Position numbers and translations under genes: made by a program
Assembly: GCA_040220235.1 (NCBI GenBank)
Contig: JAVJTO010000130.1
Origin: Coleofasciculus sp. B1-GNL1-01
Lineage (GTDB): Bacteria > Cyanobacteriota > Cyanobacteriia > Cyanobacteriales > Coleofasciculaceae
DNA length: 18,430 nt
Direction: 5' to 3' (one strand)
The notes under the pieces: model-generated
What the model was told of the DNA's origin: nothing
What the model saw: only the letters and a program-made list of their open reading frames with translations
Database searches by the model: none
In this document: positions 6,162-13,599 of the stretch, one piece after another
How the letters are laid out: each line of letters starts with the position of its first letter
How positions within the stretch are numbered: the stretch's first letter is position 1

Positions 6162-6512
6162 TCATTTGTCATTCATTTGCCAAATACCTGAAAAAATACT
6201 CTCAACAGCACGAGCAATGCGCTTGAGATCTTCATCGAGCAGGGGGGGCCAATTCACACTAGCCCGACGCCCTGCTTCAAACTGTTCTCGGCTCTCATAA
6301 GCCAATAAATATAAGGCGTGAACAAGTTCTCGGTCTAGAGTTGATGCATCTCGCAGACGCTCAAATATCATCTTTAGGGCTAATAAAATATTGGTAATCT
6401 GACCTGGAATCGGTGGTTTGTACGACTTGAGTCGAACCAAAAAGGCGTCTTGATTTTGGTCAGATATTGTGGCTTGATTAATCACAAAGTTACGGGCTGT
6501 TTTGTAATCCAT
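6162..6512 (-). CDS. Small conserved cyanobacterial helical hypothetical protein (family I recall is often labelled 'dethiobiotin synthetase'; no P-loop present)
   Basis: 116-aa ORF with MDYKTARNF...PPIPGQITNILLALK...LDRELVHALYLLAYESR...WPPLLDEDL. It lacks the BioD GTDTxVGKT motif. Confidence 0.8.
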   Translation of the reverse strand: MDYKTARNFVINQATISDQNQDAFLVRLKSYKPPIPGQITNILLALKMIFERLRDASTLDRELVHALYLLAYESREQFEAGRRASVNWPPLLDEDLKRIARAVESIFSGIWQMNDK

Positions 6513-7394: not shown

Positions 7395-8831
7395 TTACCC
7401 AACAGATTTCCACCTGCCATGAAAACTCAACGCAATGACCTGTGGTAATTGCAGCCGACAGACGGGTTCTTGATCAAGAGCATCGCTGTCATAGATCCAT
7501 ACTTCACTTTGGTCAGAATTTCCATCATAAACGACGGTTAAGACCCACCCCTGTTCTGGATTTAGCGTGTCAGGTGCATAAATGGGTTCTGAAGGATAGC
7601 GATTCTTGCCCAAATCGGCTTCGATTAGGGTTTGGGTTTGACAATCAAAGCGGGCGATCGCACTATAAATTTCGCGACGGTGATCCATATCTTGGCGATG
7701 CAGTGCTAGATAAATAGAACGAGAGGTTTGACCCACTTGCGCGTCTGGAACTACTGGAAACTCGACGTATCGATCTAGCAATTCCCGTTCGGCGATAATC
7801 ATCCCAGTTTGGGGATTGATCTCAACTTGCCATAATGTCTCGTTGGTAACGGTATGAATCTCACCCATGGCGATGTCTTGGAGACGTTGGTTTGTGCCAA
7901 AATCCGGATATCGAATAAATTCGACCACGATAGAACCCTGCTGATTCACATAGCCATTGGCAAAATGCCACTGAAACCAAGGATCGGCTTCGCTACGGGC
8001 GACTAATGAAAGCGTTTCTCGGTCAACGATTAAAATTTGGGTTCCTAATTGGGGACGCCATTCCATCGCCTCGCCAAAACTACTCACCCCCAAGGCGGCG
8101 GGTAGGAGATTCACTCGTACAGGGGGTACGAAAAAGACAAGATAAGAGCCTGCGAGGACAAAATCATGAATTAGGGGTATGCCTTTGATAGGTATCGTTC
8201 CTTTTTGGATAATTTTGCCCGTTGAGTCGCTTTTGTAGAGATTTAGATTGGAATTAAGTCCGAGGCTGATGCCAAAGTTAAATATCTCCCCCGTTTCTGG
8301 ATCACACTTGGGATGGGCTGAAAACGAGTCTCCCTCGCCTAAATAGTCTAAGCGATCGCGCCCCCAGGTTTCTAAGGTTTGCAGGTCAAGTGCATAAGGA
8401 TTCCCGCCTTCCCACAGGGCTAGTAATTTATCCGGTAGGGGTAATACAGAGGTATTTGCCCTGTTTTTCACGGGTTTACCCCACCGTTCCCAGATTCGCC
8501 CTGCGGCTTTGGTGCCGTAGTTGGGATAAAGTAATGTCCCGGCGGCGGCTTCGTCTTGATAGGCGGGGGTTTGCACGTAGCGATAGACCCCAGTCGCTGT
8601 AGCATCGGTGAAATGAACCGCTAAAATAGCGCCATCCCCATCAAACCAATGTCCCATCCGTTGACCTCCTCGTTCTAAACGGGCTGGTCCATTGCGATAC
8701 AGAGAACCTCGTAATCTTTGGGGGATTCTACCTGAGAGAATGGGTAAGGGGGTGAGGGGAAATTCAGTGGCAGGTTGAGCGATCGCGTTTGCCCAAGCTT
8801 TACGGGTTGATGGTGGGGTAACTGTTTGCAT
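7395..8831 (-). CDS. Carotenoid cleavage (di)oxygenase, RPE65/CCD family
   Basis: LRGSLYRNGP and HWFDGDG motifs; four Fe-ligand His motifs (FSAHPK, LIHDF, QWHFAN, SFHG); EPIYAP. Confidence 0.95.
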   Translation of the reverse strand: MQTVTPPSTRKAWANAIAQPATEFPLTPLPILSGRIPQRLRGSLYRNGPARLERGGQRMGHWFDGDGAILAVHFTDATATGVYRYVQTPAYQDEAAAGTLLYPNYGTKAAGRIWERWGKPVKNRANTSVLPLPDKLLALWEGGNPYALDLQTLETWGRDRLDYLGEGDSFSAHPKCDPETGEIFNFGISLGLNSNLNLYKSDSTGKIIQKGTIPIKGIPLIHDFVLAGSYLVFFVPPVRVNLLPAALGVSSFGEAMEWRPQLGTQILIVDRETLSLVARSEADPWFQWHFANGYVNQQGSIVVEFIRYPDFGTNQRLQDIAMGEIHTVTNETLWQVEINPQTGMIIAERELLDRYVEFPVVPDAQVGQTSRSIYLALHRQDMDHRREIYSAIARFDCQTQTLIEADLGKNRYPSEPIYAPDTLNPEQGWVLTVVYDGNSDQSEVWIYDSDALDQEPVCRLQLPQVIALSFHGRWKSVG

Positions 8832-8972: not shown

Positions 8973-8990
8973 AGGGGGTTACACCCCTCA
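8973..8990. promoter_or_regulatory. HetR-box-like palindrome AGGGGGTTACACCCCTCA (GGG-N5-CCC)
   Basis: GGGG-TTACA-CCCC inverted repeat. It matches the hetP HetR site as I recall it (GAGGGGTCTAACCCCTC) at 12/17 positions and is centred ~35 bp upstream of the putative sRNA start. Confidence 0.45.
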
Positions 8991-8999
8991 TCCCTAAAG

Positions 9000-9008
9000 T
9001 GCTATAGT
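9000..9008 (+). promoter_or_regulatory. Extended -10 element TG-C-TATAGT
   Basis: TG at 9000-9001 and TATAGT at 9003-9008, 6-7 nt before the GTAGATGCACCCTGA motif. Confidence 0.55.
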
Positions 9009-9014
9009 TTGATA

Positions 9015-9067
9015 TGTAGATGCACCCTGATAATCAAGAGAGTCGCGCAAGTGACTCTTTTTTTTTT
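9015..9067 (+). ncRNA. Putative ~52-nt small RNA, NsiR1-like 5' motif
   Basis: Promoter, then single-stranded TGTAGATGCACCCTGATAATC, then an intrinsic terminator. GTAGATGCACCCTGATAA matches my recollection of the conserved NsiR1 5' end; this has not been checked by search. Confidence 0.6.
9036..9067 (+). terminator. Rho-independent terminator
   Basis: Stem AGAGTCGC, GCAA (GNRA) tetraloop, GTGACTCT, then a 10-T run at 9058-9067. No + strand protein gene ends upstream of it. Confidence 0.8.
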
Positions 9068-9495
9068 GACATTCCCCCCATTACATTACAAATTTTAACG
9101 GAAAGTAAATTAGTTTATCATTTTGACACCATTGTCCGGAACAGTGATACATTAAAAATTGAAGCAAGCAATAAAGCTTCCAGTGACAGATATTACACTC
9201 CCGTTCACTGTCGAGTTCAGGAGGTAAAATAACTATCAATCTTATTTCGCTTGTATCAGTAATATCTGCCACATCAGATAGTGAAACGATCCAAATTAAC
9301 AATAGCAGCCCAACCATAGCCGCTAATATTTCCTCAATTAATTTGCTGGGAGCAATGCAACTGAAGACCACTCAAGAGTAGTAGTTCAGTGCAACTCTGT
9401 TTAGGCTAGTGATAGCAAGAGGAGATTCCTTAGATGAGTCAGGTCAGGCTGCTATTGTTTTAGCGGGTCTGGCGATTCACCTCACGCCATAAACT

Positions 9496-9587
9496 TCCCC
9501 TGCTCCCCTGCTACCCCGCAGATACAAAGCTGCTCAAGTATTTCCATGCCCGCTGTACTAGCTCCCCCTCTCCTCATCTCCCTGCTC
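9496..9587. repeat. Degenerate pyrimidine-rich TCCCCTGC-type short repeats
   Basis: tcccctgc x2 at 9496-9511, plus ctccccctc/ctccctgctc variants at ~9562-9587. Confidence 0.5.
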
Positions 9588-9782: not shown

Positions 9783-10262
9783 ATGACAATTTATTTTTAT
9801 AAGGTTGAGAAACCCTATGGCTGCTTTTCCAACTTCTCTCCCCACCCGATCCAGATCGATGGCTGGTGTTGGCAAACCGTTGAGCATTACTATCAGGCGC
9901 ACAAGTTCGTCGGGACGACAGACGAAGCCTTGATCAGGACAATCAAAAATGTGGCAACACCAATGGAAGCCGCCCTCCTCGGACGCGATCGCACCCGGAA
10001 TCATCGCCCTGATTGGGAACAGGTAAAACAACAGATTATGTGGCGAGGGGTTTTGACCAAATTTCTGACCCATCTTGATATTCAGCAAATCCTGCTGAAC
10101 ACCGGAGAAGAAATGATTGTTGAAGATTCTCCCACAGATTACTACTGGGGGTGTGGTCAGGATCAAACTGGTGAGAATCATTTAGGAAAAATGCTGATGA
10201 ATGTTCGTCAACATATCCGACAACATTTAGCACAGGCGAACTGCAAACTCGTGGATCGGTAA
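9783..10262 (+). CDS. NADAR family protein (YbiA/RibX-like N-glycosidase)
   Basis: PYGCFSNFSPHP, WQTVEHYYQAHKF, RPDWEQVK, KFLTH, EDSPTDYYWGCG and GENHLGKMLM motifs. Confidence 0.93.
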   Translation: MTIYFYKVEKPYGCFSNFSPHPIQIDGWCWQTVEHYYQAHKFVGTTDEALIRTIKNVATPMEAALLGRDRTRNHRPDWEQVKQQIMWRGVLTKFLTHLDIQQILLNTGEEMIVEDSPTDYYWGCGQDQTGENHLGKMLMNVRQHIRQHLAQANCKLVDR

Positions 10263-10662: not shown

Positions 10663-13599
10663 GTGCATCGAGCTAACCATCTGATTCGTAACTTGGATTG
10701 CCCTCTAACCCAGAATCAGACCGCGTTTCATAGGAGTAGGACAGTGTTACAACCAGAACTCGATCAAGAAGACTTGTTGCGCCGGATCACGAATCGGATT
10801 CGCCAATCATTAGAATTACAAGAGATTTTAAATGCCACAGTTGCAGAAGTGCGATCGTTGCTAGGAACCGATCGCGTCATGGTTTACCGCTTTAATGCGT
10901 CGGGTGGTGGACAGGTGATTGCTGAATCAGTCAACACCAATCGACTTTCGTCGCTCAACGGATTAAACTTTCCTGCGGATGATATTCCCGAACAAGCGCG
11001 TCAATTGTACCTCACCGAGCGCTTGCGTTCCATTGTGGATGTTTCCGAGGGGCTGATTGGTTTATCACCCTTAGAACCCTCAGAAACGGAGAATCGCTCC
11101 ACCCCGCAACCGATTCACTATCGTCCTGTCGATGCTTGTCATACCAAGTATTTACGAGCAATGGGTGTTCAGTCTTCCATGGTTTTACCCATTGTCCATT
11201 ATGATATTCAGGCTCAACGGTCTCAGAAACGACTCTGGGGACTGTTAGTCTCTCATCACGTCACACCCCGTACCATTAGCCAACGGGAATTGCAGATTGT
11301 CCAATCAGTGGTGGATCAGGTGTCCATTGCCATTGCTCAGTCTAATCTCTTATCCCAAACCCGTCAGCAGCATCAGATCGAAGCGACGATTAATCGTGTC
11401 TCCACCTTGCTGCATTCGTTACCCACAATTCAACTCCAAGCTGCTTTACAAGAAACGGTTAGCGCTCTATCGAGTTGGGGAGGTAGACTCTATATCGCCC
11501 CAGACCGGGTGAATCCGAGGGCAGAGTGCCTGATATATGGTACACAACCTACATTTGGAGATGAAGACAGTCCGACGACGATTGAAGAGCATCCCGTGTT
11601 TGTCCAATGGGTAACAGGGGATAGAACCGTTGACCCAGCCAATGGCTCATCTGCATCCAATTCGACTCCCGCCGGTTGTCAGCCACTCATCGTCAACGAT
11701 TTGCATCAAGTCTCAGAGTTGGCGAGTCTAGTTCCAGCCTTTGATGGGACTCCAATTCGAGGTTGGTTAGTAATACCCTTGTATTATCGCTCCTCATTCT
11801 TGGGTTATCTAAGTATTTTTCGCTCCCAAGTGGTGCAAGAAATTTTGTGGGCGGGAGAGTTTAACCCCAATGAAAAACAACGCAGTCCCCGTGAATCTTT
11901 TGACCAGTGGCGAGAGGTCAAACGGAATCAAACTCAACCGTGGACGAATTACGACATTGAACTGGCGATCGCACTCGGTCATCATTTTGCCATGGCGATC
12001 GAGCAATATAAACTCTATGCTCAGGTACAAGCCCTAAATAGTAACTTAGAATGCCAAGTGGCTGAACGCACCGCGAAGTTACAGCAATCTCTAGAGCAAG
12101 GGCGGGCGCTACAGCGAGTGACCAACCAAATTCGCAGTACTCTTGATCTGAAACTCACCCTACAAACGATTGTACGAGAAGTTCGTCAACTGCTGAACAC
12201 TGACCGAGTGATCATTTATCGGTTTACTGATGATTCCCACGGTCAAGTTATTGTGGAATCAATGACAGGTCAGTGGTTATCACTTTTAGATATTGACGAT
12301 CCGCAGCAGTATTTCTCGAAAGCCCAGATTCAATTGTATCAGCGGGGTAATTTAGGAGTAATTAAGGATGTCACTCAAGCTCGATTAACTCCGGATCAAC
12401 AAGAGTTCTTAAAACGTTGCCAAGTGCAAGCCGCTTTAATTGTTCCCATTGGGCAGGAAAATCCTCAAGCTAATGAGATGCCAGTTATGCTGGATAGTCT
12501 TCCTTGTCCCAGATGGGAGCAACCTCTCTGGGGATTTTTAATTGCTCAAGAATGTAAAGCTAGGCGAGACTGGCTCCCCTCAGAGATTAAACTGCTGAAA
12601 AAGTTAGCCGATCAAGCGGCGGTAGCGATTCAGCAAGCGGAATTATTTACCCATACTCAAGCCCAAGCGCAGCAATTGGCAAGTGCATTTCACCATCTCA
12701 AGCAAACTCAAGCCCAACTGATTCAAACCGAAAAAATGTCGAGTCTAGGACAGTTGATTGCTGGAGTAGCTCACGAAATTAATAATCCGGTGAATTTTAT
12801 TTATGGCAACCTGGTTTATACCAGTCAGTATGCTCAGGATTTACTGAATATTATTCATTCCTATCAGAAATATTATCCTCAGCCAGAGCCAGAGATTATT
12901 GAATTGTTAGATGTCATCGACTTGGAGTTTTTAGAAGGAGATTTACCCAAGCTTTTAGAGTCGATGAAAATGGGATCGGAACGGATTCGCAAGCTAGTTT
13001 TGTCGTTGCGAAATTTCTCCCGCCTTGACCAAGCCGAGAAAAAGTTAGTGGATATTCATGAAGGGATAGAGAGTACGCTACTAATTTTACAATATCGTCT
13101 GAAAGGGAAACCCAATCATCCAGGGATTCAGGTGATCAAAAATTATGGGGAGTTGCCGCTGGTTGAATGCTATCCCAGTCAACTCAACCAGGTTTTTATG
13201 AATGTTTTAAGCAACGCGATCGATGCGTTAGAAGACTGTAATCCAGATAACCAGAGGATTACGATTTCCACAAGTGTTAAATCTAAGACTGTGGAGAACC
13301 AATATAGTCCGAATAACACCACACAAATAGAGAAAAATCAAGACTCATCTCCAAGTCATATCATCATTCAGATTGCTGATAGTGGTTCAGGAATTAGCCC
13401 AGAACTTCAATCACAAATTTTCGATCCCTTTTTTACAACTAAGCCGATTGGTAAAGGAACGGGTTTAGGGCTTTCGATTAGTTATCAAATTATTGTGGAG
13501 AAACATGGGGGAATATTTAAATGCAGTTCTCAGCCAGGAGAAGGAACTGGATTTTGGATTGAGATTCCCATTCGTCAGTCTCAAAGCGAGGATAAATAG
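10663..13599 (+). CDS. Knotless phytochrome sensor histidine kinase (nGAF-PHY-GAF-HisKA-HATPase), AphC/Cph2-like; start may be GTG at 10744
   Basis: GAF1 has FPADDIPEQAR and the bilin-binding RPVDACH (Cys codon 11137). The PHY tongue has WAG...PRESF..WRE. A third GAF follows. H-box AGVAHEINNPVNFI; QVFMNVLSNA; DPFFTTK; GTGLGL. An in-frame GTG at 10744 has AGGAG at 10732-10736. Confidence 0.93.
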   Translation: MHRANHLIRNLDCPLTQNQTAFHRSRTVLQPELDQEDLLRRITNRIRQSLELQEILNATVAEVRSLLGTDRVMVYRFNASGGGQVIAESVNTNRLSSLNGLNFPADDIPEQARQLYLTERLRSIVDVSEGLIGLSPLEPSETENRSTPQPIHYRPVDACHTKYLRAMGVQSSMVLPIVHYDIQAQRSQKRLWGLLVSHHVTPRTISQRELQIVQSVVDQVSIAIAQSNLLSQTRQQHQIEATINRVSTLLHSLPTIQLQAALQETVSALSSWGGRLYIAPDRVNPRAECLIYGTQPTFGDEDSPTTIEEHPVFVQWVTGDRTVDPANGSSASNSTPAGCQPLIVNDLHQVSELASLVPAFDGTPIRGWLVIPLYYRSSFLGYLSIFRSQVVQEILWAGEFNPNEKQRSPRESFDQWREVKRNQTQPWTNYDIELAIALGHHFAMAIEQYKLYAQVQALNSNLECQVAERTAKLQQSLEQGRALQRVTNQIRSTLDLKLTLQTIVREVRQLLNTDRVIIYRFTDDSHGQVIVESMTGQWLSLLDIDDPQQYFSKAQIQLYQRGNLGVIKDVTQARLTPDQQEFLKRCQVQAALIVPIGQENPQANEMPVMLDSLPCPRWEQPLWGFLIAQECKARRDWLPSEIKLLKKLADQAAVAIQQAELFTHTQAQAQQLASAFHHLKQTQAQLIQTEKMSSLGQLIAGVAHEINNPVNFIYGNLVYTSQYAQDLLNIIHSYQKYYPQPEPEIIELLDVIDLEFLEGDLPKLLESMKMGSERIRKLVLSLRNFSRLDQAEKKLVDIHEGIESTLLILQYRLKGKPNHPGIQVIKNYGELPLVECYPSQLNQVFMNVLSNAIDALEDCNPDNQRITISTSVKSKTVENQYSPNNTTQIEKNQDSSPSHIIIQIADSGSGISPELQSQIFDPFFTTKPIGKGTGLGLSISYQIIVEKHGGIFKCSSQPGEGTGFWIEIPIRQSQSEDK

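Follow-up and report, generated by a model that had tools for sequence, protein, structure and literature searches.

The question raised by positions 8973–9067 of the window (the whole 18,430-nt stretch of DNA that was analysed, contig C130 of an 8.66-Mb genome) is whether they hold a small-RNA gene in its own right and, if so, how this gene is related to NsiR1 of Nostoc (Anabaena) sp. PCC 7120 (RF02399) and which regulator its promoter may answer to. A first-pass annotation, made from the sequence alone, had proposed an NsiR1-related gene with its own predicted promoter and terminator, and this is borne out by a full-length Rfam match, by the seed and by conservation. The best reading of the comparisons described below is that the unit probably represents a sister class of NsiR1, set apart by its promoter class.

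Sequence inspection confirmed all the parts that had been described: an extended −10, TG-C-TATAGT, at 9000–9008 on the plus strand, a 21-nt leader at 9015–9035, a stem at 9039–9046/9051–9058, which can be extended to 9036–9061 and is capped by a GCAA loop (9047–9050), and a run of ten Ts at 9058–9067, the putative intrinsic terminator as a whole occupying 9036–9067 (+). The GNRA cap holds for this copy, but the loop type varies among homologs of the small RNA. The start had been placed at about 9015, a near-identical position within the range of 9014–9016, but G9016 is the more likely +1, because the Nostoc NsiR1 entry begins at the equivalent G (Table S3, in the part of PMC4734099 consulted). 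The predicted RNA would then occupy 9016–9067 (+), with a length of ~46–52 nt, its first 16 nt (9016–9031, plus strand) being the NsiR1 seed, predicted to be single-stranded with an unpaired probability of 0.6–1.0. The −10 would likely be read by a group-1 sigma factor, and there is no consensus −35 at 17 bp upstream of it. The −35 region is covered by a palindrome at 8973–8988 (approximately −40 to −30, assigned to neither strand), with a GGG-N5-CCC core at 8976–8986, which lies at the very start of the coordinates given by the first-pass annotation and had nevertheless gone unmentioned. The unit is divergent from a carotenoid-oxygenase-like gene (7395–8831, minus strand), which starts 185 nt away, and it had rightly been described as having no plus-strand gene upstream: once the ORFs that run antisense within the oxygenase gene are set aside, which are the only plus-strand ones within ~2.7 kb upstream, the nearest ends at 6300.

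Taken singly, the parts of the unit are not above chance, whereas in combination they are: the terminator alone is one of 17 found against 16.7 expected, and a promoter scan, which requires a −35, did not return this site. The fold has a z-score of −3.22, with 3 of 200 shuffles equally stable. In an alignment of seven same-genus sequences (this genome and six congeners) the promoter is invariant at 44 of 46 positions and the RNA at 51 of 52, compared with only 30 of 69 in the adjoining spacer, and among 34 aligned homologs the terminator stem has double-sided changes in 5 of its 9 pairs (covariation term −1.32). The element at 8973–9067 is real and conserved.

The relation to NsiR1 is close but not that of a canonical copy. 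The Rfam model RF02399 is matched over its whole length (model positions 1–60, E 0.037), yet at 28.8 bits the window copy remains below the gathering threshold of 39 bits. Ten other copies that belong to the palindrome class or have no palindrome (below, the palindrome is also called the box) score 28–37 bits, and two Trichodesmium box copies score 46–48 bits; Rfam overlooks most box-class copies. The 18-nt 5′ sequence of Nostoc NsiR1 is identical to window positions 9016–9033 (Table S3, as excerpted from PMC4734099). The two share a short, conserved, single-stranded 5′ part, an intrinsic terminator at the end of a predicted RNA of ~50–60 nt, multiple sibling copies and a link to HetR. They differ in that the window copy has GGG-N5-CCC and an extended −10, whereas Nostoc NsiR1 has the DIF1 motif TCCGGA at −35, in that the terminator stem of the window copy is shorter and of a different sequence from that of the Nostoc array, and in that the window copy is single and adjoins the oxygenase-like gene, not standing in a tandem array upstream of hetF. 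Homologs of NsiR1 have been listed in 38 genomes, only 27 of them heterocystous (Table S3, PMC4734099, in part), and RNA162 of the non-heterocystous Limnospira indica is an Rfam-annotated NsiR1-like RNA (PMC8400943, in part). Like the window copy, whose host is very probably non-heterocystous, RNA162 and the listed homologs outside heterocyst formers are NsiR1-like sequences in filaments without heterocysts; the rows of both sources that we consulted carry no mention of promoter classes or of a HetR box, those of the Limnospira supplement giving counts for Rfam-called NsiR1 copies and no promoter class (PMC8400943). No description of a HetR-box promoter class was found in the literature searched, the coverage of which was incomplete, and its novelty is therefore provisional.

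The flanks of the window are ~92% identical to Coleofasciculus sp. D1-CHI-01, a genus that we take to form no heterocysts. No PfaA/HglE-type synthase scored over the cut-off in the host genome, such synthases being present in two genomes of family f5, presumably a heterocyst-forming family. Because of these Coleofasciculus-like flanks and the lack of a synthase over the cut-off, the host is very probably non-heterocystous, which had been raised as a possibility in the first pass and distinguishes it from Nostoc. A check of gene content, which had also been proposed, showed that this Coleofasciculus-type genome has hetR with an RGSGR-containing, patX-like ORF upstream of it, hetF and two hetP-like genes. 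The patX-like ORF lies on contig C51 at ~204600–205200 (L134), behind a TCCTGA motif. A nifH-like gene is found at C147:25376–26188 (L135); the nif genes of the genus are, we assume, of non-cyanobacterial origin. What hetR and patX do in cyanobacteria that lack heterocysts has been called an open question (PMC11298460).

The proposal that the unit is an orphan or ancestral single copy does not hold, since the host genome contains 13 copies of the exact 12-nt seed. Seven of them exceed the Rfam cut-off, with TCCGGA or TCCTGA at −35: a four-copy array on C85, single copies on C98 and C157, and one on C74, 317 nt upstream of hetF and antisense to its leader, as is NsiR1 in Nostoc. Five of the 13, the window copy included, have instead the GGG-N5-CCC palindrome and a sigma-70-type −10, and a copy on C100 belongs to neither promoter class. 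There is no copy within 500 nt downstream of the host's own gatB; that of the window is, in Coleofasciculaceae, a dispersed duplicate. Diverged seed-like units were also seen in this genome at C28 (~16692, reverse-strand index), C77:35931 and C100:28770, the first kind being preceded by a box, another having a box within the downstream hairpin and a third lacking both.

The same division into two classes is found beyond this genome. Searching named genomes for an exact 17-nt match gave at least 125 stretches, and in a first count 333 distinct copies comprised 284 with TCCGGA (up to one mismatch), 37 with the palindrome, none with both and 12 with neither. In a larger set, from which a terminator filter passed 344 of 370 copies (terminator-followed relatives being what the first pass had advised looking for), 264 have TCCGGA only, 68 the palindrome only, one has both and 11 have neither; in random 46-nt windows the frequency of GGGN5CCC is 0.6%. 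The two promoter classes are almost mutually exclusive, and they differ also in the −10, an extended TGnTAnnnT being present in 39 of the 68 box-type copies versus 2 of the 264 of the TCCGGA type. Of 401 genomes drawn from across the phylum, 77 have the box together with the seed (reversed-pattern control, 0), including 26 of 26 in family f2 and 20 of 46 in f5; within the order, 115 of 251 genomes combine an extended −10 with the seed. At 20 of 58 box-type loci the unit lies 3′ of one common gene on the same strand, recognised from its sequence as what we take to be gatB; because this neighbour is shared, the palindrome class appears to be an old orthologous lineage, dispersed but ancestrally gatB-linked, as opposed to the hetF array of Nostoc NsiR1. 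The invariance of the seed is partly circular, as the copies were found by the seed; nevertheless, at the 30 loci found with only 10 of its letters, CTGAT comes next at every one among the matches listed. A seed match in a Parcubacteria bin (L101), which has no terminator, was discarded as due to chance. In Spirulina (L024 and L081) a box-type RNA stands tail-to-tail, 80–91 nt apart, with a gene that we take from its N-terminus to be hetR, and in Trichodesmium erythraeum IMS101 (L172, 7575640–7576070) three tandem box-type copies adjoin the tmRNA gene.

What binds the palindrome is probably HetR. GGG-N5-CCC has been reported from structural data and EMSA to be indispensable for HetR, the other bases being dispensable (PMC4649674, in the part available), and a HetR-site consensus including flank letters has been derived from hetP (PMC4192349, likewise). 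In the window this core is found at 8976–8986. The flanks, which were not part of the search, agree with the hetP consensus: T four positions before GGG in 51 of 68 copies, T after GGG in 61, and, after CCC, C in 59 and A in 61. The exact 11-nt hetP core occurs in two Trichodesmium copies, and the window site is identical to the hetP crystal DNA at 14 of 21 positions; an equal match is reached by 94 of the 3200 strand-counted GGGN5CCC sites in this genome, and the case for a HetR site therefore rests on position and co-inheritance. The HetR-site promoters of hetP and hetZ in Anabaena PCC 7120 have the same core with matching flanks, but they precede protein genes, whereas the predicted site of the window stands before a small RNA and covers the −35 region. 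At hetR itself, a GGGN5CCC site is dispensable (PMC7377430, in part). A scan of the host for promoters with box and −10 yielded ~30 intergenic candidates and no clear regulon. A dispersed short repeat of the host genome (C30, C53, C105, C106, C161 and others) carries a near-perfect hetP-type palindrome (18/21) and could titrate HetR or seed new sites.

Co-inheritance with hetR is seen first at the level of the seed: in lists of 301 genomes compared by eye, every one of the 158 with hetR carries two or more seed copies, and 19 of the 143 without it have any (13 have one, five have two and one has four). NsiR1, known as a heterocyst marker, thereby appears as a pan-HetR RNA family. For the box, hetR was present in 72 of 73 genomes tested among the 77 with box plus seed, the remaining one being G383, and in a second set in 29 of 29 genomes with a box or near-box versus 1 of 7 without a box. 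Operator loss was followed with copies picked by extended −10 plus seed, not by the box, the sample consisting of 30 loci (115 genomes had a match) and 20 chosen regions that deliberately included f5 genomes without a box match, and leaving out three genomes of unknown hetR state. An intact box was found in 24 of 31 hetR-containing and 0 of 16 hetR-less genomes, and a box within one mismatch in 31 of 31 and 2 of 16, respectively (the other 7 of the 31 having exactly one mismatch), where the hetR-less set represents three families and hence few independent losses, not independent samples. Five further hetR-less genomes retain the unit without the box. Lineages without hetR have mostly lost the palindrome but kept the −10, seed and terminator, which amounts to a natural loss-of-operator experiment. 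As a promoter that HetR may target directly in filaments without heterocysts, the box class is a conserved candidate of small size. Two genomes are exceptions: G441, which has DIF1 copies and a complete hetF besides its intact box copy and in which hetR was not found by Pfam or protein search, and G383, with five box copies and no hetR found. Since all seven members of the G383 family, including a single-contig congener, have hetR, its absence there is probably an assembly gap. G309 has three DIF1-type copies in a family with hetR in none of seven members.

We therefore give a probability of roughly one half to the reading in which the window encodes a stand-alone ~50-nt sister RNA of NsiR1 that is predicted to be repressed by HetR and to silence mRNAs by seed pairing. 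A sigma-A-type polymerase would start near G9016 from the extended −10 and stop at the U tract; HetR would bind the box at −40 to −30, over the −35 region, and likely repress; the unpaired seed would then pair with mRNAs and, judging from Nostoc, likely silence them. That the gene is transcribed we regard as very likely. The sign of HetR control is less secure, repression being mildly favoured because the box start varies from −41 to −32 across 68 copies, the activating HetR site of hetZ lies further upstream, at ~−50 to −40 as computed from the available part of PMC3610870 (the window's box being ~10 bp nearer the start), the promoter and RNA outlive hetR, and down-regulation of some genes by HetR has been reported (PMC4192349, in part; PMC11298460).

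Activation by HetR is considerably less likely than repression, though it is the strongest competitor: the RNA would be the same, and HetR, bound at the box, would activate through contact with RNA polymerase at the −35 position, which as a complete account we consider slightly less likely again. It would fit the commonest box position, which is fixed (40 of 68 copies have the start at −40, and 54 have it between −39 and −41), and the absence of a consensus −35 at 17 bp. The patA promoter is reportedly activated by HetR through such a site. The same has been described for hetZ (PMC3610870, in part), and all known NsiR1 copies depend on HetR (PMC9045159, in part). Against activation stand the variants in which the box comes as near as −32, the persistence of −10, seed and terminator in lineages without hetR and the 10-bp distance from the known activating position at hetZ. 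Were it nevertheless true, the class would serve HetR induction as a rapid and direct branch, with the HetZ-dependent DIF1 copies as the slower one. What canonical DIF1 promoters require is HetZ and not direct HetR binding (PMC7377430, in part), so that the two promoter classes would differ in logic under either sign, control being direct and possibly negative for the box class versus indirect for Nostoc NsiR1.

On the preferred reading, repression from the box, a wider scheme may be drawn, which as a whole is improbable, a little more so than activation: an ancient seed may have been connected to HetR in two ways of opposite sign, box copies being repressed and thus on in low-HetR cells and DIF1 copies being on via HetZ in high-HetR cells, together forming a homeostat and amplifier on hetF and a further core target that patterned the cell state of filaments before heterocysts existed, with unicellular descendants keeping the RNA and shedding the operator upon the loss of HetR.

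Quite unlikely is a third account, in which the RNA is regulated independently of HetR and the palindrome either binds a different factor inherited together with hetR or is a relic. The boxes of G441 and G383 would be explained in this way, GGGN5CCC palindromes, including that of the dispersed repeat, are common in this genome, and the central letters of the box are mostly TGACA, unlike the TCTAA of hetP; however, these letters are irrelevant for HetR by EMSA (PMC4649674, in part), the flanks agree with the consensus from hetP, loss of the box follows that of hetR and all relatives of G383 have hetR. Still less probable is a role mainly in cis, antisense to a long oxygenase leader in the manner of NsiR1.1 for hetF: the oxygenase starts 185 nt away, is also the neighbour at L047 and L086, and a weak sigma-70-like site on the minus strand (9121–9092) would give a leader covering the RNA, but such sites number 31 where 31.5 are expected by chance, the majority of box-type copies stand beside other genes, among them the 20 of 58 that follow gatB on the same strand, and conservation of the seed extends far past the oxygenase neighbour. 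That the unit is merely the start of a small protein gene (the 70-aa ORF at 9020–9232, which begins within the seed) or a silent dispersed repeat, as its tandem and dispersed copies might suggest, is very improbable, as the stem covaries and the conservation of promoter and RNA far exceeds that of the spacer, and the protein reading was rejected because the ORF is frameshifted or truncated at the T run in congeners, with products of 26 to 70 aa.

As to what a silencing RNA of this kind would act on, NsiR1.1 of Nostoc blocks hetF and NsiR1.4 blocks alr3234 by pairing, identical NsiR1 copies also partly regulating hetF (PMC9045159, in part); NsiR1 is bound by PatR (PMC11797042, in part), and in one study nsiR1.1 had little effect on hetF promoter fusions (bioRxiv 2020.09.09.290692, in part). 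Upstream of the host's hetF lies a 16-nt stretch to which the seed is perfectly complementary, with a predicted 16-bp duplex of −30.4 kcal/mol; predicted duplexes with both hetP-like genes are weak (−11.7 and −10.6). We tentatively suggest the hetF leader as one target in this host, at somewhat less than even odds. A second seed-complementary site, apart from the antisense copy, lies 86–95 nt before hetF at 10 of the 31 hetF-start loci listed (L022, L013, L039, L046, L057, L083 and others) and is a candidate trans-binding site. A search of 7261 crude ORF start regions and of the genome-wide list of complements gave no convincing ribosome-site target beyond the opposite strands of the copies themselves, and a complement search of five genomes with a single exact copy gave no shared target gene; a family-wide complement search with one mismatch mostly counted the RNA genes themselves. 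A 16-bp seed complement was noticed at C70:141556–141572 (−); it is flanked by the gene for a small membrane protein and by one for a 296-aa product, and a box-type copy lies 4 kb away. The hetR-less genome G047 keeps the RNA, and its HetF homolog (C28:52848–54332, L222; 525 aa) is without the central protease region, its gene having no upstream seed complement. A similarly short HetF form stands beside a DIF1-type copy in G441 (C74).

As to transcript data, sixteen RNA runs contained only small shares of the region, and of four metatranscriptome runs two had contigs that pass over the unit, long and flat, and the other two left it uncovered, such contigs being unable to resolve a 50-nt RNA. 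Table S1 for Trichodesmium gives no start site for any of its five copies, the TCCGGA type included, and is hence weak evidence; the tables for Nostoc PCC 7120 give no separate transcript or sRNA after gatB, where that strain may or may not have a copy.

Just 3′ of the unit, at ~9165–9460 (+) and with TCCGGA at 9135–9140, lies a second structured RNA, which is probably non-coding. It has no match in an Rfam search or in the Nostoc sRNA table, but is matched in 17 of 36 family genomes (some matches being short and weak) and in none of 24 outside it; C102 carries a paralog. Long-range stems are predicted, with double-sided changes in 9 of 52 pairs among eight sequences and no net covariation energy, and it appears as separate short contigs in three RNA runs, one of them beginning at 9174, ~35 nt after the DIF1 motif. 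It is followed at 9494–9568 by a short dispersed repeat with ~30 BLAST matches elsewhere in the genome. The window ORFs at 32–799, 9783–10262 and 10663–13599 are, respectively, transposase-like (at the start of the contig and presumably IS4-like), one for a protein with a NADAR/riboflavin N-glycosidase domain and one for a histidine kinase with phytochrome-like similarity.
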